Part shown: piece after piece, positions 4,921 through 52,005 of the stretch
Position numbering within the stretch: position 1 is the first letter of the stretch
Layout of the letters: the number at the start of each line of letters is the position of its first letter
Source: Octopus vulgaris
Taxonomy: Eukaryota
Direction of reading: 5' to 3'
Assembly (NCBI GenBank): GCA_951406725.2
Contig: OX597825.1
Coordinates: 57,102,001-57,166,000, forward strand
Length of the DNA: 64,000 nucleotides
Notes under the pieces: generated by a model
What the model was told of the DNA's origin: nothing
Seen by the model: the letters and a program-made list of their open reading frames with translations, nothing else
The model's database searches: none
Program-made: the position numbers and the translations under genes

Positions 4921-5076
4921 TAATTGAATAAGTTGGAGTATATATAGGTCCAACCCATGCCAGCATGGAAAATGAATGTTAAAGTACAATGATATATATA
5001 TATATATATAATTGTACTTTAACATTCACTTTCCATGCTGGCATGGGTTGGACCTATATATACTCCAACTTATTCG

Positions 5077-7041: not shown

Positions 7042-9758
7042 TCAGTTGGAGGAATTATCAATGGCAATTGTGGAAGAATTATCAACAGCAATCGTGGAGG
7101 AATTATCAACAGCAATCGTGGAGGAATTATCAACAGCAATTGCGGCAGAATTATCAACAGCAATTGTGGTGGAATTATCAACAGCAATGGTGGAGGTATT
7201 ATCAACAGAAATTGCTGTTTCAACAAAGCTTGTATTCTGTTGGTCGTCTAACACCTTTATTTCAATGTTTGGTGTGTCGATAGTAGCAACATCAATACGA
7301 CATGTGGTTACATGGCTCTCCGCATGCGCTAGAGAGGAGAAGACAGCATTACACTCACTACACATAAACACTTCTGGCATCTCCATCAGCTGAGCAGCCT
7401 GTGCCGCAGCCTGCAGAATGTTGCCTTCTGGGATACCAGATAAGTTTGACATATCGATGACAATGTCGTTTTGATCCCCCACTGGAATGGCAATGTTTTC
7501 ACCAGACTCTACCTGCTGTTGTTCCAGTTGAAGTCCATCAACTGTTAATGTCATTCCATCACTGATAACCGTTCTGCTCTGCTGCCATGATTTATCTCCT
7601 TTACAACGAGGTTGGTGGTGTTTCAGTGTAGCTGAACACGAAAACGGTTTGTTACAGTTCTGACATACATATTTACTGATTCCAGTATGAATGACCATGT
7701 GTTGAATAAGTTTCGACTTAAATTTAAATGCTCGATCACAACATGTACACTTAAATGGTTTCTCTGTAGTGTGGATATGAATCTGATGTTTCATCAACAT
7801 TGTGCGGAAAGCAAACCCTTTGCCACACAGCTGACATTTGTGAGGTTTGTTGCCGGTGTGTTTGTTGAGATGATCATTGAAATTAGCTTTACTGATGTGT
7901 TTCTGACCACAATAGTCACAAGTAAAACGATATTTTCGTTTGCTAACGTCTTTGTGAGTTTCTAAATGGTCTTTAAGAGTATTGCTTTCAAAGAAACGCC
8001 AGCCACATAAGTTGCATTCGTGTTTCTTAATGCCTTCATGTCGTTTCATGTGAGTGCGGAGGTAACGTATATGATTGAACTGTTTACCACACTGCTTACA
8101 CTGAGCTGCTTTCTCTTTTGTGTGAACAGCCTGAATATGAGTAATTAAATGGTTCCCTTTTGAAAAGAGTTTCCCACATAAATTGCACAACTTAGAATCA
8201 TCTACATGAGTTTCTTTGTGATTAATCAAAGCAGAATAGTTCGGAGCCACAAAACTGCATTGATTACATTTCATAGAAGTCTTTTTGGGATCGGGTTCCT
8301 TAGTAATTTTGTGCATAAAACTCATGTGCCAATTCAGTTTGGCAGTACCCTGAAAGCTTTTGCCACACACAGAACAGTGAACAATAGCTAACTGGGGAAA
8401 TGGTCCATGTTTACGAGACAGATGGCTCTTTAAGTCAAACAATCGATCGAAAGTTCTTTGACAGACATCACAACGCAATGGGTTTTCTATGTTGTGTTCT
8501 TGCCTTAAATGTTCAGTAATTATATCAAATTGATTATCCTGTAAGCCACACAAGTGACAAAGCAGGTCATAAGTGTGAGATGAAAGCTGTTTTGATTCTG
8601 TAGTTTTAGGAGTTTGATTAAAGGTGTTCCCAGCATACCTGGAATTTACTTCACTAGTAGATGATGATGATAAGGATGATGATGGTCCTCGACCACTTAT
8701 ACCAGCTGCAGCTAATTCAGACTTCAAATCATTCCTATTTCTCTGTCTTTGCCTTTTTTTGGAAGTGAATAAATCCCGGATGGTAGGTAATACAGCAACG
8801 TCTGACATTACTAATGGCTTGAAAACACGGGATTTAGGTTTTTTGCTAGAATCTTTTGATTTAGAAGGATTAGCACTAGTTGAAGATGCTTTAGAATTCT
8901 TCTGACTAACAGTATCACTTTGAACAGTTACTTTATCATTATCATTGTTCTTATTATTATCATTAATACTACTACTAGTGTTACTCTCATCATTTGTGAG
9001 TTTATTAGTTTCAGAACTGTCATCAATTAACATAGCCTCATCAGGTTTACCACTGTCTGAACAACTGGCACCAACTGTTTCTGAAGATGGAGAGTCTTCA
9101 TCACTCGAATCATTTAAACCATTTTCAGTGTTCATTTTAAAGAGTTCGCTTTTCTTGGGTTTTCCCACAAGGAATGAGAAATCAATTTTCTTCCCACGGG
9201 TAGAATAGCGTTTGCTATTTAACAGGTGACTATCAGCATCTGGGGTCATGTCATCGGCATCATCAAGATCTTTTTCATAAACAGTTTCTTCAGAAGCATT
9301 AACTTTATTACTAATCTCTTTCCTTGGCCTTCCTCTTTTCCTTTTGATTGTTTTAGCACCTGGACTTTGTAAATCTTCTATGGTTGAGTCAACTTTTCGA
9401 ACTTTAATATTGCTTGGGTTCAAACAGTTGTTTAGCTTTCGAGGCCGCCCACGTTTTCTGGGAGAAGATGGTGAGGCCACCAAACTAGTTGCTGGACTCT
9501 CAGGATGTTTCTCACCATTGTCTTTAGATCTTTTGGAGCTGTATTCTTTCAAAGTAACTTTTGTATCTTTGTCAGAATTATTTAATGCCCGTTTGTTCAG
9601 CTGCTTTGAAGACTGGTTAGAACAGGTGTTTTCTGGCGTTTTATCACCATTAACTATGTTGGAGGGATTCATTTCAAGTGAAGGTGGAATTCTCTGTTCT
9701 GACAGCAGGCTGACTTCAACTTGTATGCTGGCATCCATACAATTCTTTGGATACAAAT
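7042..9758 (-). CDS. Zinc-finger gene, terminal coding exon: two AT-hooks, 12 C2H2/C2HC fingers, C-terminal octapeptide repeats
   Basis: Long ORF with a polypyrimidine/CAG acceptor at 9761-9759 (phase 1, G|AT = Asp). Contains PRKRGRPRK and KRKRGRPRK, fingers with HTGNKPHKC, HTTEKPFKC and HTGISKYVC linkers, and TGA at 7044-7042. Confidence 0.93.
7045..7215 (-). repeat. Coding 24-bp tandem repeat (~7 x AVDNSSTI)
   Basis: Repeated ggaattatcaacagcaatcgtgga units, in frame at the C-terminus of the zinc-finger protein. Confidence 0.9.
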
Positions 9759-10779
9759 CTGAAAAAAAAAAAAATAAATAAAATAATGGTTTCTGATTAA
9801 AGTACAAGGCCAGCAATTTTGAGGGATGGAGAGTGGTCAATACAATCAACCCCAAACTTAAACAGAGCTTTAATTTATTGATCCCACCGAAAGGATGAAA
9901 GGCAAAGTTGATTCAACAGGATTTGAACTCACAATGTAAAGAGCCAGAGAAAAACACCACAAAGTACTTTTTCTGACATTCTAGCGATTCTGCCAGTTTT
10001 ACTGCCTTTATGGCATTTTGATTTAGACACAAGGCCAGCAATTTTAAGGGAGGGGGACTAGTCAATACCATCAACTCAAGTATTTGATAAGTATTATATC
10101 TCATCATCCCTAGAGGGATAAAAAGCAAAGTTGGTCTCAGTAAGAATTGAACTCAAAATGTAAAGAGTTGGAAAAATACCACAAAACATTTCTTCTGTTT
10201 TAACAGTTCTACTATTCCACCACCCTCATATAATAATTGATTCTAATTAAGGCACAAAGTGCGCAAGTTTAGGGTAAGGGAACAGTCAATTACATCAAGT
10301 CCTGTAACTGGTACTTTATTTTATCAACCCCGAAAGAATAAAAGACAAAGCTGACCACAGTATGTCTCCACTCCCTATTTTACAGCTGAACTCAAGATGT
10401 AAAGAGGCAAAAGAACAACAACAAGGCATTTTGTCCAACACTCTCACAATTTTGCCAATCCCCTGCCCAGAAGGATGAAAGATAAAAAGTTGACCTGGGC
10501 AAGAACACAAAGAGCAGTAAATATCATAAGGGGTTTGGGCCAACACACTAATGCCAATCTGCCAACCATTTCCTTGCAAATATTAATGGAATGTTGATTG
10601 TGTATTTAAGATGCTGGACTACAGGCCTATTGACCAAATGGTTAGTAGCTCAAGCCGATCTACTGTAACCATTATAATACCTATCAAATACTGGTGTTGA
10701 TGGTATTGATAAGTCTCCTCCCCATCCTGAGTACATCACCTTATACTGTTTATTCTACCTGGCTGAGAAAAACAAAAAT

Positions 10780-15189: not shown

Positions 15190-15629
15190 CGTCTTGGTCA
15201 CTAGTCATTGCCCCTGTGAGGCCCAAAGTTCAAAAATGATGCTTCACCATCTCGTCTACCTCCACCACAGGTTCCCTCCACAGTTAGAGATCAGCACTTC
15301 TTTACACAGCTGTCCTCGTCCATACACATCACATAACCATACCAGTGCAGTCGTCTCTGTTGCACACCACATCTAATGCCTCTTATTCCCAACTTTTCTC
15401 TCAAGATGCTTACTCTCTGACAAACATGCATGCGGACATTGCACATTCAGCAAAGCATACTAGCTTCATTTCTTTCAAGTCTACGCGTGTCCTTGGTTGT
15501 CACAGCCCATGTTTCACTGCCATGTAGCATAGCTGTTCACACACAGGCATCATACAATCTGCTTTTCACTCTGAGAGAGAGGCCCTTTGTTGCCAGCAGA
15601 GGTAGGAGCTCTCTGAACTTTGCCCAGCC
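15190..15629 (-). mobile_element. RTE LINE 3' fragment (same family as 2297-4278)
   Basis: Reverse complement matches GWAKFRELLPLL...VKSRLYDACV*TAMLHGSETWAVT. Confidence 0.85.
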
Positions 15630-16168
15630 TTCTATTAAACATGGAGAAGAATCTGTGATGATCTGGGGAGCTATATCTTGGAAATCCACTGGCCCAATGG
15701 TTCCCCTTCATGGTAGAATTAATAGTCAAGACTATTTAAGCATTTTATCTGATCAAATTCATCCTATGGTTGCAGAACTGTTTCCGGAGGGAAACGTAAT
15801 CTTTCAGGATGATAATACTCTAATTCACACAGTTAAAGTTGTTACTGAATGGCATGAGGAACATTCTAGTGAAGTTGAACATCTCATCTGGCCACCACAG
15901 TTCCCAAATCTCAATATTATTGAACATTTATGGTGCATTTTAGAAAAACAAGTAAGGAATCAATATCCTCCACCATCATCACTACAAGAACTGGAGAATG
16001 TTTTAGCTGAAGAATGGACAAAAATTCCTTTGGAAACAATTCAAACTTTGTATGAGTCCATACCTCGTAGAATTCAAGCTGTAATTACTGCCAAAGTTGA
16101 TTCTACCCCTTATTAAAATAAATTTGTTTGAAATTTTAAGGTGTTTCCATTATTTTGTCCAACCCCTG
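15630..16168 (+). mobile_element. 5'-truncated Tc1-family transposon, catalytic half intact (DD36E spacing)
   Basis: KHGEESVMIWGAISW...FQDDN...WPPQFPNLNIIEHLW...YESIPRRIQAVI..., stop at 16116. The right TIR ends ...gtccaacccctg followed by TA. Confidence 0.88.
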
Positions 16169-38012: not shown

Positions 38013-38344
38013 TTTTACTATTTCCTAATGAAACTGGACCAAGGAGAGAAGGTCTACATACCATAGTAAACACCAAATGCATAAAGTGGCAATGGCTCAT
38101 GAGCATAGCTAAGAGTTTTTGATATGCAACAATGAATGATGTTAGAACTGCTGAGCCACGCTGTGATGATGGTCAATGTCAACGACAACATATGATTATC
38201 ACTCTAATTTCAAGTTTATTTCAAACATTAGAATATGTTTCCCTGTGAAAATAGTTGTTTCTGTTATAAGCATAAAGCCTTTAATAACTATTTCAACTTT
38301 AGGTTCAAGGCTGGGAATTTTGAGAGAAGGGTGTTAGTTAACCA

Positions 38345-40065
38345 AATGTTCCATCTTCATCACCACTGACATTGGACTCTATATCCTCTATGCAATTTAC
38401 ACCAGCAATGCTACAACACCACCTAAAGAATAAACGCAATTATGCCTCTCCTGGTCTCGATGGTGTTACATACCTACTTCTCAAACGCAGTGGGTACTTT
38501 CTTCTAAGACAACTTTCTCTATTCTTCCAATTCTGTCTTGACAATGGTGTTACTCCAGAACAGTGGAAAACTGCCAGTGTCATCCCTCTGTTCAAAAAAG
38601 GCGACCGCACATCGCCTGTCAACTATCGCCCCGTCAGTCTTACTAGCTGCATCGCCAAACTGATGGAATCCTGTATCAGAGAAACCCTCTGGAACTTCTG
38701 GAAGTCTCACAGCCTCATCCAGCCGTCACAATTCGGATTTATTCCTAACTCCAGCTGCTGTAATCAACTCATCGAGTTTCTTGAGGACGTTACCCAAATC
38801 ACTGATCGCGGATCCTGGGTGGATGTTGTTTACCTGGACTTTGCTAAGACTTTTAACTCTGTGCCACACAAAAGACTTATGGTGAAGCTTTCTGCGTTGG
38901 GTGTAAGAGACGAACTCTATAACTGGTTAAAGTCTTTTATTTTCGGCCGAAAAGAGGTTGTCACAGTTCTAGGACAGCACTCTTCGCCCTATGAGATGAC
39001 ATCTGGTGTGCCGCAGGGATCTGTTCTTGGCCTCCTTTTATTTGTTGCATATGTTAATGACATAGATGCCAACTTAAAGAATGCCACAGTGCTGAAATAT
39101 GCAGATGACATCAAGCTGTACCTCGAAATAAAGAGGTCAAATCCTGTACACTATGGATCTCTATTGCAAGCAGACCTGGACACATTGCAGCAGTGGATCA
39201 TGGACTGGCAACTCAAGCTGGCTGTGGACAAATGTACCACCATGCATTTTGGGAGGAGAAACCCAGCGTCCACCTACTCCCTCCACAACACTAGTCTCAA
39301 AAAGTCTTCAAGTGAACGTGACCTGGGTGTTATTGTCGACAGTGATTTGCGTTGGACAAAACACATCGCTAAAATTGTCAAGAAGGCTGAGGGTGTCTTG
39401 GCATCACTCACCAAATCCTTTGTGAGCCGCTCTCCGGCTATCTATCTGTGGCTTTATATAGCTATGGTAAGACCTCACCTGGAATTTGCATCACCGGTCT
39501 GGAACCCCTATCTTGCCCAGGACATCAATCGTCTGGAAGCTGTTCAGCGACGTGCAACCAAAAGAATAACCCTCCATCAGGCATTTGCCATATCCTGAAC
39601 GCCTTACTTCCCTGGGCATGGACACATTGAAACTCCGACGTCTGGCAGCTGACTTGGCAGACACCCATAAAATTATCAACCATCGCACAAACAATAACTC
39701 TGAGCACCTCTTCAAACTCCACCCATCTAACACCCATGGACATATTTACAAAGTAAGAAAACAGCACAGCTCCCATGACTTCAGGAAACATTTTTTCACA
39801 CTGAGAGTTGCTGAAGCATGGAACAAACTGCCGGCATCGGTTGTTAGTTGTCGGAGCACTGCATCCTTCAAAACTTCCATGCTTCCTGAGATTCGCCAAC
39901 ACTACACTTGATTTTCTCCCCTCCATACACACACAAGCATGTATCTGACTCATACACTGTTCACTTTCCAGACATTTCTACATTACTGCATGTACTTTAT
40001 ATGCACTTTCTGACAAGTTGTGGTGCACCTGAGCACTGTATACAATAATTTCATTTTTTATTTTT
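38345..40065 (+). mobile_element. 5'-truncated CR1/L2-type LINE with near-intact RT
   Basis: ORF 38372-39598: PLFKKGD..NYRPVSLT, QFGF, YLDFAKTFNSVPH, SGVPQGSVLG, KYADD, ERDLGV, VRPHLEF...W.PY. A frameshift at ~39570 continues in 39585-39911. Ends in a TTA-rich tail. Confidence 0.93.
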
Positions 40066-42368: not shown

Positions 42369-43776
42369 ATTCCACACATACATTGTCCAGTAGTTGCTGT
42401 GTGAATTTGTTGAGAGTCGGACGGTTTTTTTTTGCTGCTTAGAAAATGTATTCAGACCTTAGCGAGTCTGAGTTGTCTTCAGCAGAGGAGGAGCTGGTAA
42501 GGGCAGTCATAAAGATGGACGGAGTGTTGGAGAAGACAAGGAGTTTTGCTGAGGCCACAGGGATGAAGCAAAGGGAGTTGGACTTGGCTGGTCTGAAGGA
42601 GTATGAGAAGATGGTACAGAAGGTTGGTGGCAACATGAGGTTGTTGCTCCCCCCACCCCGCCCCCAAAGAATTATGGAGAGGAAAATGATCACCTATAAG
42701 TGTTCTCGTAAAAAGGTAAAAAGGCCAAGCAGGTGGAAGCTGAACTGGAAAAGGCACTAAGGGAGTGGTCAAAGGAAATAACATACATAACTAAAGGAAG
42801 GAGACATGGGACAATGGTCGTCCAATTTAGGACAGTAGAGGAGGTGAGGAGGCTGGCGAGTGTGGTGGTGAAAACAGAGGAAGTAGTGCTTCTGCCCACA
42901 TACCTTGTAAGAAAGACTTCCAAGGTAAGGGTAGAAGCAATCCCACCTGATATAGAAGTGGCTGGGGTGGCGGCGGCTGTCCTTATTGGAAGTGTGGAGA
43001 AGGTTGCTGTCCTTCAAGCCACAGAAATGGAAGAAGGAGGGTGGAAAGCGAAGACACTAGAACTAATTATACAGGCAGAGGAGGGACAACTGGAGAGTTT
43101 GGCAGAGACGGTGATGCTGGGAGAAATTGTGCTGAGAGTGTGGGTAAAGGGCAGAGTACCACGTTGTTTTAAATGTGGCCAAACGGGCCATATTAGAGCA
43201 TACTGTCCTCTACAAAGGTCAATAGCAGAAGAAACAGTTTTGGAGATGGAAAAGAAAAGAGAGGAAGAAAAGACAGAAGGAGGAAGAATGGAGAGTAACA
43301 AAGAGCAGAGGGAAGAAGAGGGAAAAAAAAAACACTGAGTGTGATGTGGTACCCCAGTCCAACTCCATCCCACCCAAGACCACTCAGAACCACCCTCCCT
43401 AACCCTAACCCAAACCCACCCACCCCATTTCCCCACAGGTAAAAAAGGAAAAAAGAGCAGACACCTCAGGATTTAGAAGACCCCTACCCCAGTGAAAAAG
43501 GTTATGAGAGAATGCAGTCATGGAGCGATAGCAGAACTGGAACAGTGACTAAAAGGAAACGAGGACTCAGAGGCAGCAAGTAGTGTTGCTCAGTGTGGAG
43601 TGAGTAGCACACTCTTCATATTTTCATTTTCAACTATCACGCATGTTATCATAATTCTAATTTGTTTTTCATGTTTATTTTCATGTGTCATTCATAATAT
43701 CATATTTTATTTTCATATATTTTTTATTGTTATATGTCCCCGCATGTAATGCCTTTATGGGAAAAATATTGAAATA
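42369..43776 (+). mobile_element. ORF1-only (gag-like zinc-knuckle) non-autonomous retroposon with TSD
   Basis: Frameshifted ORFs 42446-42760 and 42733-43338 with an RRM-like stretch and CFKCGQTGHIRAYC (CX2CX4HX4C). AATAAA at the 3' end. aagaagcttg(a/c)ttcc is duplicated at 42359 and 43777 inside a split SINE. Confidence 0.75.
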
Positions 43777-44189: not shown

Positions 44190-44589
44190 ATGTATATCAT
44201 TCTGCCTAAATAATGGATCTACAAATGCAATATCCCTGCATATCTCACATCTATTTTCATTCCTCCACTTCACTCTCTATTTCGTATCTTATCCAAATTA
44301 ACTATTGCTTAACCATTTTCTCACAGTGTCTCCGATGAAGGGATATATAAAATATCCTGGAAACAGCTGTAAGACCTATTTATAAATGTTCTAAATTCTT
44401 CACAGCCTTGGTTTTTTTATCTCATTCTGAAAAAAAGTTTTTTTATATATACACATGCTGATATATGACCTACGTTGGACTCCTTATTCACATAATCACT
44501 GAACCTGGAGCTTAACTATGGTCTGTCCATAGCACTTATTCAGCATTACTTGACACCTCTGGGTCTTATTGACACTATTACCTCTCATA

Positions 44590-44595
<6 letters not shown>
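44190..44595 (+). mobile_element. Short Penelope-like terminal-repeat relic carrying a hammerhead ribozyme (family 2)
   Basis: Non-coding segment abutting (TC)n(TA)n and containing the motif at 44328-44375. Boundaries are approximate. Confidence 0.55.
44328..44375 (+). ncRNA. Minimal type I hammerhead ribozyme (core variant CCGAUGA)
   Basis: GUCU-CCGAUGA-AG GGAUAU auaaa AUAUCC UG-GAAA-CAGCUG(palindrome)-UA-AGAC. Helix I GUCU/AGAC and a 6-bp helix II core. Confidence 0.75.
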
Positions 44596-44687
<92 letters not shown>

Positions 44688-44879
44688 CATTATATAATTA
44701 GGGCTTAGTAAAATAAATTACTTTGCCACATACTGGACTTAGTAGAAATAGCAGCCAAAAAAAAATTTTTTTAGCCATTTCTACTACTTAAAGAAAATTT
44801 CTCTCAGATAATGTTTACTCCAGACAGCTCACGAAGGTTTGGAGGTAAATACAGAAAAATATCACAAGTACATAGATCG

Positions 44880-44942
44880 TTTGAGTACGTCAACGTTTCA
44901 AGATTAGCCAAATAAAATCACCATTTCTTTTGTCAGCTCAAA
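44880..44942 (-). ncRNA. Type I hammerhead ribozyme copy 1 (G8>A, probably impaired)
   Basis: UUUGAG-CUGACAA-AAGA...UCUU-GAAA-CGUUGACG-UA-CUCAAA. Confidence 0.8.
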
Positions 44943-45440
44943 ATTTCTTAATTTGGATTTGGAAACACTAAAAAGAAGGAACTTTACCTCTTGGCGAACT
45001 TGTCGCTTCAAATGAACCAGCTCCAACTGCTAGTGCCAACAAATTCAAAATGCGCAGGCGTAAATCTCTGCAAATCTTTTCCACCCACGTGGTCTATCTA
45101 GCAAACGTTATATTTTAACCGTGAGAACCAAGGCAGTATGACAGAGAGAAATGAATTATAATATCAATAATTGAGGGTAAAATTAATTAATCAATTTCAC
45201 CAAGTGTTCAGTATGTAAAAGGACCATTTAAGGCAAATTCAAAATATTACATTATATAATTAGGGCTTAGTAAAATAAATTACTTTGCCACATACTGGAC
45301 TTAGTAGAAATAGCAGCCAAAAAAAATTTTTTTAGCCATTTCTACTACTTAAAGAAAATTTCTCTCAGATAATGTTTACTCCAGACAGCTCACGAAGGTT
45401 TGGAGGTAAATACAGAAAAATATCACAAGTACATAGATCG

Positions 45441-45503
45441 TTTGAGTACGTCAACGTTTCAAGATTAGCCAAATAAAATCAGCATTTCTTTCGTCAGCTC
45501 AAA
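45441..45503 (-). ncRNA. Type I hammerhead ribozyme copy 2 (intact consensus core)
   Basis: UUUGAG-CUGACGA-AAGA aau GCUGA uuuuau UUGGC uaa UCUU-GAAA-CGUUGACG-UA-CUCAAA. 6-bp helix I and GUA cleavage triplet; predicted cut between 45447 and 45446. Confidence 0.88.
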
Positions 45504-45711
45504 ATTTCTTAATTTGGATTTGGAAACACTAAAAAGAAGGAACTTTACCTCTTGGCGAACTTGTCGCTTCAAATGAACCAGCTCCAACTGCTAGTGCCAA
45601 CAAATTTTGAATTTGTTGGCACTAGCAGTTGGAGCTGGTTCATTTGAAGCGACAAGTTCGCCAAGAGGTAAAGTTCCTTCTTTTAGTGTTTCCAAATCCA
45701 AATTAAGAAAT

Positions 45712-45774
45712 TTTGAGCTGACAAAAGAAATGGTGATTTTATTTGGCTAATCTTGAAACGTTGACGTACTCAAA
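45712..45774 (+). ncRNA. Type I hammerhead ribozyme copy 3 in the inverted arm (G8>A)
   Basis: tttgag ctgacaa aaga...tctt gaaa cgttgacg ta ctcaaa, read directly on the + strand. Confidence 0.8.
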
Positions 45775-48383
45775 CGATCTATGTACTTGTGATATTTTTC
45801 TGTATTTACCTCCAAACCTTCGTGAGCTGTCTGGAGTAAACATTATCTGAGAGAAATTTTCTTTAAGTAGTAGAAATGGCTAAAAAAATTTTTTTTTGGC
45901 TGCTATTTCTACTAAGTCCAGTATGTGGCAAAGTAATTTATTTTACTAAGCCCTAATTATATAATGTAATATTTTGAATTTGCCTTAAATGGTCCTTTTA
46001 CATACTGAACACTTGGTGAAATTGATTAATTAATTTTACCCTCAATTGTTGATATATATATATATATATGTGTGTATATGCACTGATTTGGTCATGTGAT
46101 GCAGATGGATACTGATAACTCTATAAGGAAGTGCCAATCTCTCAAATTGGATGGAACATGTAGAAGTAGGAGGCCCAGGAAGACTTGAGATGAAGTACTG
46201 AAGATTGAACCTTTCAGATGAGATAATAAAGGAACAAGATACCTGGCATCTGGCCATACTCAAGAAGACCTCTACCCCACAGCAGAAGTGTTAAGACTGA
46301 TCCTTCTGGTGGTGTAGAGCACTCATGGCAGCATCACATAAAAGCGCCCATGCAGTACCACATAAAAGCACCCAGCACACACTGTAAAGTGGTTGGCATT
46401 AGGGAGGGCATCCAACAATAGAAACCATGCCAAATCAAACTTGAGTCTAGTGCAGCCCTCCAGTTTGCAGCTCTGGTCACACTGTACAACCCATGCCAGT
46501 ATGGACAACAGACATTAAATGATGATACATACATACATACATGCATGCATGCATACATACATACATTATTATGGCTGCCCCCTCGTTATCGAGTATGGCC
46601 ATTGCACGAAGCTTAACTGTTACTGGTGCTGTGATCGAATGTGACTTTTTAGCCCAGCTAAAGATCTACAATGTCTTGTACAAAATTGGCAACTAAAACC
46701 TTTACTGGTAATAGCCGGCTGTAGTTGTAACTGGGCTTCATGTACATACATACATACATACATACGTACGTACGTACATACATACATATGTGTGTGTGTT
46801 TATGTTAATGCCTATCTTATATGTTTATATTATTCAATGCTCTAGACACCTCTTTATATATTTACCTGATCCAGAGGTTTAGTAAAATGAGTGACTAAAT
46901 GTCTAGTGCTTTAGTAGAATCATTAGATTGTTGGTAAAAAAAGGCCTTGCATTATTTACTCTGTTTCTTTGCCTCCTGAGTTTGAATCCCATCAAAGCCA
47001 ACTTTGTTTTTCAAGCTCCCAGGGTTGAGAGAATAAAGTACTAGTAAATACTGAATTGATATCATCCCCTTACCTCCTTCCCCTTAAAATTCTAATTTTG
47101 TGTCTAAATTAGAAACTCTATTTCATGCTATCTTTCTATGGTTAGGGTCTGAATCTTGCCATGATCTAATTTGTTGCTTCCTATCAGCAAATTACACATC
47201 AAATGAGTGTTAGTCAAATCCATCCACTATATATATCCTTTCATTCTTTACATTAATGTAAGAGATCAGATGTAGTGTGCAAGTGCAAAGACTGTGCTGG
47301 TATGGTGATGTAATGCGTATGGACAAAGACAGATGCGTAAAGAAGTGCCAATCTCTAACTGTGGAGGGAACCTGTGAAAGATGTAGACCCAGAAAGATAC
47401 AGGACAAGGTAGTGAAATATGGTTTATAGATGTTGAGACTCATGGAGGCAATGACATGTGGCTGAAACTTTTGGTGATTTACAGTGCTTGAGAAGACATG
47501 TCATGCAAAGTGAAATTGTAGTGATCGCCAGTGCTGGTGATACATGAAAGGTACTTGTACTAATGACACCTTAAAGGCACCTGTGCTAGTAACAAGAAAA
47601 ATATACCCAGTACATCAAACCAAAACCGACTGGTGCTTGGTGCGGCTCCCCAGCTAACCACTTCCAATCAGTCTAACCCATATCAGCATGAAAATGAACG
47701 CTAAGTGATGATGATGATGATGATGATGATAATTCTCAGCATATCGTCACCCTCATCTCCACCCTCGTCATCATTTTCTTTATCATTACGATTCTCAGAA
47801 GCTGCTGGAACAATACATGGCAGCTTCTTTAGTTTCAAACACTAAACCTCCATATCATGTACCCTTTGATAAATGTCGACATTATATACCTTCAACTGAG
47901 CAGCAACACTAAATACCTTCAACACTGTCCACTCTCAGACCATAGCTAAATCTCAACATTATATACTCTCAATTAAACCTCAGAAACTGTGTAGCCTCTC
48001 GTTCTTGATATCAGTGTCAGACATCATTCTCACCGCATTGTCATTCTCATTTACACTTTTGTCATCTTCTCCCTTATCTCTATTATTCCCAGAAGTTGCT
48101 GGAACAATACATTGCAACTTCTATAGTTTCCAACACTAAAACTTCCACTAACATTAAATTCTCCAAATAATACCGGTCTTTCAGAGTTACGTCCCTTGCT
48201 ACTTCAAAGTAAAACCTTCAGCTGGTGTTCTTTCATATACCTTGTCTATACATATTCTTTAGAACCATCGATAATTCTTCACCTACCCTCAAAAAATTCC
48301 TTTCATAATCTAAGTGATTGAAATCTATAAATTCCCCGGAACAGATAAATGTCTTTATTACTGTTGTAAGTCTGTGATATATT

Positions 48384-48704
48384 ATGGGACGTTCCCGTCT
48401 CCTTGTCAAGAGCCGTTTTGTACGGCATGGTCTTCCGTTCATCACTTTAATCGTGGGTGGTTCCTTTTTACTTAAAGAATACGCAACTTTGAGGTATCAG
48501 TTTAGGAAATCGGAAATCACATCTGCTAAGGAAATCGCCGAAAAAACAGGAATTGAAGCTAAAGAGGAACCAGTAACACTTGAGAAAATCTACGACGAAA
48601 TGAAAAAGGAGGATCTTGATACTTGGGAGAACATTCGAGGGCCTCGACCTTGGGAAGATTCGAAAACAGTACAAGATCTACAAAGGGGAAAGGCCAGTTC
48701 TTGA
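48384..48704 (+). CDS. COX16: Cytochrome c oxidase assembly protein COX16 (single coding exon, 106 aa)
   Basis: N-terminal RHGLPFITLIVGGSFLLKEYATLRY (TM segment) and C-terminal DTWENIRGPRPWED are hallmark COX16 motifs. Intact ATG to TGA and typical length. Confidence 0.93.
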   Translation: MGRSRLLVKSRFVRHGLPFITLIVGGSFLLKEYATLRYQFRKSEITSAKEIAEKTGIEAKEEPVTLEKIYDEMKKEDLDTWENIRGPRPWEDSKTVQDLQRGKASS

Positions 48705-51223: not shown

Positions 51224-52005
51224 AGATAAGGGCAAAAGAAAAATTCTAATGCCAAATATGCTGAAAAAAAGACAAAAATTGTCAATAACCATTATAATTT
51301 ATGCGTCTCGAAACAAACCGATAGAAATTTCTAAAAATCCGTTATTACCGTATTGGTCTCAATTTCGGGGTTAATTCATAAGAATTTTCCCCTCTTCAGC
51401 GATAAATACGTGAGATATAAGTGAAATACTTACTCATACCCATGGAAAAAGCAAGCACTAAGTCTTGAGCAGACCTAAGTACCCCAAATATATCCAAAAT
51501 AGAAAATCTTCGGCACATCTCGAGACAAAAGCATGGTTGTGTGGTTAAGAATCTCACTTTGCAACCATGAGGTTTCAGGTACAGGCCTACTGGTTGACAT
51601 CTTGGACAAATGTCAACTACTACTTGTATAACCTGAACCAACCAATGTCTAGTGAATGAATTTGGTTGATGGAAACTTTGTGGAAGCCTGTTGTGTTTGT
51701 GTTTGCTCACCACCACTTAACAACTAGTGTTGATTTGTTCATGTCCCTGTAACCTAGCAGTTCTTCAAAATAGAATAAGTACTAAGCTTACAAAAAGTAC
51801 TGGGGTCTCTTTTCCATTTCTTATTTTTGTTATAGGTGCAGGTGTGGCTGTGTGGTAAGAAGCTTGCCTCCCAACTGAATGGCTCCAGGTTCAATCCCAC
51901 TGCATATCATCTTAGGCAAGTGTCTTCTACTATAGCCTCAGGCTGACCAAAGCCTTGTGAGTGGATTTGGTAGATGGACACTGAAAGAAGCCCATTGTGT
52001 GTGTG

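Follow-up and report, generated by a model that had tools for sequence, protein, structure and literature searches.

How does a short repeat without protein-coding capacity come to lie, in two arms of opposite orientation, within a dinucleotide run of the octopus genome? The question is raised by a locus in a 64,000-nucleotide stretch of Octopus vulgaris DNA (NCBI GenBank assembly GCA_951406725.2, contig OX597825.1, positions 57,102,001 to 57,166,000 of the forward strand); this whole stretch is termed the window, and positions are given in it. A non-coding unit of 562 bp that carries a type I hammerhead ribozyme motif is found there in three copies within (TA)n. The explanation preferred here, which is considered probable, is that the locus is a young insertion of a dispersed non-coding hammerhead family, likely put into (TA)n in trans by the reverse transcriptase (RT) and GIY-YIG of a Penelope-like element (PLE). 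It is based on the dispersal of the family, the target, two 3′ ends with one per arm, an uncut template and the homogeneity of the units.

Unit positions are numbered U1-U562 in the hammerhead sense, U562 being the commonest genomic end. The locus consists of a 925-bp partial tandem on the minus strand and a 452-bp arm on the plus strand, joined back-to-back. An earlier note on the window had described a partial tandem of period 561-562, a unit free of open reading frames (ORFs) and a setting in (TA)n, and all three descriptions hold. Segments 44682-45045 and 45244-45606 show 3 differences in 364 positions, the longest ATG-started frame of the circularised unit encodes 26 amino acids (aa) in sense and 34 aa in antisense, and the locus is preceded by (CT)n(TA)n and followed by (TA)n. 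The third copy, the plus-strand arm at 45604-46055, is inverted and not tandem; the outer left unit and this arm differ by one indel in 370 positions. Both outer boundaries of the locus are 3′ ends of the hammerhead-sense RNA, and the truncated 5′ ends face each other centrally.

Animal retrozymes of the kind without long terminal repeats (non-LTR) are repeats in which non-coding units, each with a type I hammerhead, stand in tandem (Cervera and de la Pena 2020, PMC7229834); this and the other papers cited are represented here by the portions available. The octopus unit is AT-rich, with a GC content below 50% as in retrozymes, and a flanking LTR pair was not found around elements of the family. 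A target-site duplication, which in retrozymes is >4 bp when present, is unreadable against the TA repeats that form both flanks.

The family is dispersed. Of 1,450 candidates for the unit, 40 were scored and yielded 138 matches at 93-98% identity, spread over many contigs, which answers the copy-number check that the earlier note had suggested: the unit is not single-copy. The hammerhead 3′-half pattern has 655 exact matches in the genome (a reversed control has 0) and the 5′ half of the hammerhead of this family, family A, has 414. Elements comprise 1-13 units each, and most copies are <2 units long. A sister family, B, has a 545-bp unit with a perfect ACGUACGU palindrome and forms arrays of 10-13 units. 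Families C (~465 bp), D/E (~545 bp) and F (~600 bp) have their own hammerheads and share only the last 170-200 nt, at ~70-75%; a pattern for this common 3′ module, drawn so as to leave out A, B and C, matches 1,100 times. Among the loci of families C, D/E and F (L104-L223, L316-L345), those of D/E have a U3-A8 core and, as judged by eye, TATA-like and splice-donor-like motifs upstream of the hammerhead.

Within elements the units are nearly identical. Comparison of arm with arm gives 92 differences in 8,419 sites, and a 13-unit array shows 0 differences in 31,698 site comparisons, as against a divergence of 3.3% between elements. The arrays therefore arrive ready-made. Contigs of four sequencing runs guessed to be RNA cover the unit; these contigs carry no strand, end or level information. 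Of four larger runs, from four organisms, three have contigs on the unit and the fourth does so weakly; none supplies an empty-site joint that could be used.

The clearest imprint of the insertion process is found at the 3′ ends. Seventy-three elements were classed, 27 from the best 30 loci of the unit search (3 duplicates removed, this locus included) and 46 from the first 100 matches listed for the hammerhead 3′-half pattern (1 duplicate removed, 1 already in the first set). An end at U460-485 was termed short and one at U550-562 long; the two fixed ends lie 87 nt apart. Inverted elements number 44, of which 37 combine a short with a long end, 1 has two long ends, 0 have two short ends and 6 have a damaged end. 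The short-plus-long combination is thus present in 37 of 38 classifiable inverted elements (17/17 and 20/21 in the two sets, binomial p 8e-6 and 1e-5). The 28 one-armed elements use either end alone (14 short, 12 long, 2 other), and 1 further element is complex. In related families the combination is seen in 23 of 27 cases, a sample that contains three near-identical neighbours and was in part picked with a long-end query, and the second arms of family F fit the two-end pattern in 13 of 15.

The target is equally well defined. A (TA)≥4 run is found in a 35-nt box at 112 of 115 3′ ends, compared with 41 of 1,785 background boxes (2.3%), which bears out the (TA)n flanks anticipated by the earlier note. 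Free 5′ ends abut (TA)n in 19 of 27 cases. Points of 5′ truncation are scattered: 2 of 88 lie ≤5 nt from the predicted ribozyme cut site, where ~1.7 are expected, and arms cross the site freely. As ends do not pile up at the cut site and arms run across it, a cleaved linear monomer was not the template.

All three copies at the locus display helix I UUUGAG/CUCAAA, helix II AAGA/UCUU, GAAA, CGUUGACG and GUA. The earlier note had reported a complete hammerhead with CUGACGA in each copy; the helices and remaining motifs stand, and the core itself is found only in the middle copy (45497, minus), with CUGACAA at 44936 (minus) and 45718 (plus). The cut sites that it predicted, 45447/45446 and 44886/44885, are indeed 561 nt apart. 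The window has 2 sites that satisfy a strict type I descriptor, namely the middle copy and 51399; in 200 shuffled windows there are 0. The site at 51399 (minus) is an unrelated type I hammerhead of another repeat family, with an intact CUGAAGA core, and is nearly identical to one at L072.

The haplotype that carries the change of the outer copies, G8A, is particular to this locus: it has 2 exact matches in the assembly, both here. G8 is kept in 47 of 49 sampled family copies and, of the 414 exact matches that the 5′ half of family A has, in 99 of the first 100 listed. Examination of 452 sites of the shared 3′ module, with repeated counting of overlapping loci, gave 287 occurrences of the motif upstream of it. 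Positions 3 and 8 are C-G in 247 of these, U-A in 33, U-G in 5 and C-A in 2, both C-A cases being from the window. In a PLE hammerhead the single changes G8C and C3G each abolished cleavage (PMC11167929). Since G8 pairs with C3, and a single change at either position had this effect, G8A without C3U is predicted to be inactive.

It had been proposed in the earlier note that minus-strand transcripts of the locus release a 561-nt monomer. Such release would require that two cores work, be it as single ribozymes or as a dimer (dimer model, PMC4209133). Only one of the two tandem cores is intact, and a 561-nt monomer is therefore unlikely to come from this locus. The family hammerhead is predicted to work as a dimer; its helix III strand forms a self-duplex of -10.8 kcal/mol and has no monomer fold. 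With two of three cores broken, the copy here is probably unable to yield monomers or circles. Two consecutive complete hammerheads, which mark an element as 'active' in Li et al. 2026, are absent from this locus and present in other copies, e.g. L006, L010 and L026. A contig that ends at 44885, the predicted cut, was considered as evidence of cleavage and rejected, as a sequence variant branches at 44886.

If the preferred explanation is correct, insertion may have proceeded as follows. A PLE protein would bind the conserved 3′ module in trans and nick both strands of the TA run. On an RNA of more than unit length, the long and the short start would each serve to prime one cDNA, and the two truncated cDNAs would be joined back-to-back with little or no overlap. 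The template is uncut at the ribozyme site and would have been either a closed circle that the enzyme reads round or a tandem transcript left uncleaved; long arrays of identical units speak for the circle.

A narrower version of this explanation is the classical retrozyme cycle, in which hammerheads cut tandem transcripts, the 561-nt monomers are ligated to circles, and the PLE enzyme reads the circle round into arrays. It is a serious contender whose chances are put slightly below even. It agrees with arrays that arrive ready-made, 10-13 near-identical units long and stopping at a normal fixed end, and with the intact core in nearly all of the matches listed. Differences within elements (32 internal-only and 55 terminal-only sites, near the expected 1:2) fit independent decay of identical units, and circles have been demonstrated for coral, mussel and axolotl retrozymes (PMC7229834). 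On the other hand, in vitro cleavage was seen for only 1 of 9 Xenopus dimers (bioRxiv 10.64898/2026.07.22.740005), and the present locus itself resists the scheme. Three changes, namely G8A, another substitution and a 1-nt indel, are common to its two outer units and absent from the inner one; one monomer circle is insufficient for this haplotype, found only here, unless gene conversion followed. These private changes common to the outer units point to a heterogeneous multimer read twice over the same unit, or to later gene conversion. That both arms copy the same unit was dropped as a general rule and is kept for this locus only: an unpolarised family-wide test gave no signal (32 vs 55), and a polarised one gave 9 vs 5 with several sites in a poorly aligned A/T run.

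A more far-reaching hypothesis, which is tentative and seems doubtful as a whole, is that at least five or six protein-less hammerhead RNAs (465-600 nt) share one 3′ recognition module and owe their insertion to a PLE enzyme acting as a dimer; on one and the same RNA unit it would prime from both strands of the target, with a separate fixed site for each of the two. The locus would then be a record of the process: with the same private, ribozyme-dead unit in both arms and a differing upstream unit, one uncut multimeric RNA, and not a monomer circle, would have served both primers, and cleavage would be dispensable for mobilisation in vivo.

Several observations weigh against the preferred explanation, and some of them also count in favour of an alternative. 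The short-plus-long rule has exceptions (1 long-plus-long element in families A/B; 1 long-plus-long and 2 short-plus-short in related families), and the 87-nt tail exceeds the 30-40 nt described for PLEs. In addition, the arms are truncated within 10 nt of the same unit position at 7 of 44 junctions, this locus included. This is ~4x the uniform expectation and is not predicted by two independent truncations. Near-symmetric junctions would be natural if one cDNA had folded back and copied itself, or if DNA repair had followed the insertion, to give the inverted shape, with local unequal exchange as the source of the arrays. The overlaps of 1-11 nt at 28 of 44 junctions, which are inflated by BLAST extension, also suit such an origin, and conversion could account for the shared G8A. 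However, a self-copied arm cannot exceed its template, and the arms here measure 925 and 452 bp; fold-back also gives no reason for a second arm to stop at the short end that one-armed insertions use alone. This origin is regarded as quite unlikely.

Further points of this kind concern the hammerhead. The Rfam scan proposed in the earlier note gave nothing but microsatellite and hairpin noise; at E≤1 the window has no hammerhead match. The minimum free energy fold differs from the hammerhead fold, in that helices I and II are kept and the core is mispaired; folding z-scores of -0.24 and +1.0 are unremarkable. Purifying selection on the family-A hammerhead was also dropped as an argument, the signal being weak and region-dependent, with the second set picked by motif (hammerhead divergence 0.6% vs 1.9% in one set, with 0.9% in the next flank). 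The missing Rfam match, the folding energy and the weak constraint within the family are what would be expected if the hammerhead were a chance or relic motif in an ordinary satellite-like repeat. Against this are the dispersal of copies, which do not form one array, the lack of descriptor matches in shuffled windows and the covariation of the helices, another check named in the earlier note that gave a positive outcome. Four related groups supplied 17 hand-chosen variants, across which compensatory changes in helices I and II affect both sides of 10 of 13 pairs, including all 6 of helix I, and C3-G8 switches to U3-A8, in families with flanks ~70% alike. In these variants 93.7% of cells are paired, as compared with 28-35% in slid controls; the figure does not translate into a probability because the variants are related. 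A chance or relic motif is thus highly improbable.

The last adverse point is that an autonomous element with a homologous 3′ end was found neither in 30 + 20 GIY-YIG loci and 30 loci of a second PLE type nor beside the repeat loci examined; 150 of 6,136 GIY-YIG candidates were scored. The earlier note had suggested a system of PLE type mobilised in trans and had named linkage to RT + GIY-YIG ORFs as a check. Dispersed copies, (TA)n and the insertion hallmarks agree with the first part, and the linkage was not found in that search. No PLE ORF is present in the 64-kb window by tblastn, and none is attached to the sampled copies; those lying beside copies are set apart by (TA)n and have different 3′ ends. 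The units might then be truncated pseudo-LTR (pLTR) ends of an autonomous PLE yet to be found, with the tandem form as a by-product. Most copies are indeed <2 units long, metazoan PLE hammerheads are mostly truncated ends (PMC4209133), and the search covered only part of the candidates. Upstream walks in families A, B, C, D/E and F nevertheless reach the tail of the previous unit and never an ORF, and the nearby PLE ORFs have the (TA)n in between and the other 3′ ends already mentioned. The pseudo-LTR origin is considered unlikely.

A young PLE family with an intact 781-aa RT + GIY-YIG protein and many full ORFs is present in the genome (L091-L099, e.g. C5:1040500-1048000) and, from its CxxCxxC linker, appears to be Neptune-type. 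Among 18 of its 3′ ends, 13 are short and 5 long, with 30-40 nt between the two classes. It displays a U3-A8 hammerhead-like motif near the 3′ end, an optional tail of 30-40 nt and an apparent upstream frame. It was rejected as the partner on account of its other 3′ end, alignment of the Neptune end to the unit giving z=2.5 only. Other 3′ ends also led to rejection of at least 4 further Neptune-like families, a GC-rich Neptune-like copy beside a family-A element, a decayed second PLE type, and the PLE ORFs beside families C and D. Families C, D/E and F were rejected as partners themselves, the upstream walk showing tandem non-coding units. Hydra-1_Obim was set aside, as its listed hammerhead and 3′ flank differ from the unit. 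The core motif of the 3′ module is absent from the supplement text of Craig et al. (PMC8557442), in which line breaks could hide the motif, and Hydra/Naiad proteins were not searched in the genome.

Two of these PLEs deserve separate mention. The GC-rich fragment (L230:236-1153, minus; L346) has an open frame and a long (CA)-rich 3′ region and shares a TA run with the family-A copy. The decayed second type (L286-L315) numbers thousands of candidates and includes a 597-aa frame at L315 unrecognised by Pfam.

The features of the locus are collected in Table 1.

Table 1. Parts of the hammerhead repeat insertion and its microsatellite target, with positions in the window
Feature	Position	Strand
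(CT)22 then (TA)n, left part of microsatellite target	44594..44681	
Left arm, outer unit, U475 to U1; ends at the short 3′ end, boundary blurred by a few TA bases	44682..45156	-
Type I hammerhead, copy 1; core CUGACAA (G8A at 44931), predicted inactive; site 44886/44885	44880..44942	-
Left arm, inner 5′-truncated unit, U562 to U112	45157..45606	-
87-nt tail segment, internal here between two tandem units	45157..45243	-
Type I hammerhead, copy 2; intact core CUGACGA; predicted cut 45447/45446	45441..45503	-
Inversion junction, 3-nt overlap of two 5′-truncated arms (U112, U106)	45604..45606	
Right arm, U106 to ~U557; ends at the family long 3′ end	45604..46055	+
Type I hammerhead, copy 3; core CUGACAA (G8A at 45723), predicted inactive; site 45768/45769	45712..45774	+
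Conserved 3′ module common to families A-F, leads to the short end	45899..45972	+ (also 45317 and 44755, -)
Terminal tail, at one insertion end only	45973..46055	+
(TA)n, right part of target	46052..46069	

The window contains other elements as well. At 44326-44375 (plus), 300 bp to its left, is a remnant resembling a minimal hammerhead, with core CCGAUGA, helix II GGGAUAU/AUAUCCU and the palindromic ACAGCUGU; it is in a high-copy repeat that ends at the same microsatellite and is probably the end of another PLE. A near-perfect 118-bp hairpin centred on a TA run (4942-5059) may be a tiny two-armed insertion of another family. Additional transposon remains, all on the plus strand, are a DDE_3 transposase fragment (15421-16116), a 418-aa reverse transcriptase frame (38342-39598) and a zinc-knuckle frame (42712-43338). 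The COX16 coding frame (48378-48704, plus) lies 2.3 kb to the right of the element, and a 956-aa C2H2 zinc-finger frame is at 7042-9912 (minus).

The family combines properties of two known systems. Like retrozymes, it consists of non-coding low-GC tandem units with one type I hammerhead each, dispersed as monomers to multimers in a genome that also harbours PLEs, and the short palindromic helix III is suited to dimer cleavage. The unit of 562 bp compares with ~170-400 nt in the invertebrate retrozymes of 2020 and 51-972 bp in a 2026 survey, in which retrozymes are proposed to be non-autonomous PLE derivatives from co-occurrence and pLTR homology (Li, Clavereau and Pollet 2026, bioRxiv 10.64898/2026.07.22.740005). 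A pLTR homologue is present for 24 of 57 Xenopus retrozyme families and was not found here. Back-to-back arms, two fixed ends and (TA)n targeting were not found described for retrozymes in the portions of these papers available. The retrozyme features readable from these sequences are present at the level of the family, which appears to behave as a non-autonomous PLE; the copy in the window lacks two consecutive complete hammerheads.

Partial tandems, an inverted 5′-truncated copy, a 30-40-bp tail at one end and a preference for (TA)n are features of PLEs (Craig et al. 2021, PMC8557442). The octopus family displays all but the tail length and, like the EN+ PLEs (Neptune, Hydra, Naiad), has a hammerhead near the 3′ end; it differs from them in the unit without an ORF and in the tail of 87 nt. 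With the minimal or variant hammerheads of PLE pseudo-LTRs (Cervera and de la Pena 2014, PMC4209133) it shares the palindromic helix III, predicted dimer activity, U3-A8 covariation and motifs on opposite strands 100-700 bp apart. Unlike those, the hammerhead of family A lies in a free tandem unit, and its helices I and II, of 6 and 4 bp, resemble the canonical type I.

A functional parallel is the purified Poseidon PLE of Anolis carolinensis, whose RT starts at two internal RNA sites bounding the tail (Frangieh et al. 2024, PMC11167929). In vitro, both strands of AT-rich DNA were cut and extended and uncleaved RNA was inserted, ribozyme cleavage being unneeded. Two internal starts bounding a tail, use of both strands, an AT-rich target, an uncleaved template and the lack of ends at the ribozyme site are all matched here. 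The Poseidon starts lie inside an autonomous ORF, however, and a pairing of one start per strand is not reported in the portions of the paper available; the octopus unit is non-coding and shows short plus long in 37/38.

As to whether the family had been described before, a matter that the earlier note left undecided, the class has (PMC7229834; bioRxiv 10.64898/2026.07.22.740005), and so has the one-sided tail. The family itself was not found in the literature searched, which also contained no work that treats hammerhead repeats of octopus or states a rule of one start per arm, and a look-up with the sequence of the unit gave no match; the family may still be present in Repbase/Dfam, in subscription papers or in the supplements of the 2026 preprint. 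Within that literature, the short-plus-long rule as quantified in a hammerhead repeat that encodes no protein, the module common across families and the tail of 87 nt appear new.

The single locus has no evident host role. Its wider interest is in two questions stated as open (PMC7229834, PMC8557442, PMC11167929, bioRxiv 10.64898/2026.07.22.740005), namely which enzyme moves animal retrozymes and by what route PLEs produce tandem, inverted, one-tailed insertions. A short, young, ORF-free substrate with two mapped starts and a near-strict rule of one start per arm makes both questions testable, and the 781-aa PLE of the same genome is a ready source of enzyme for in vitro work.

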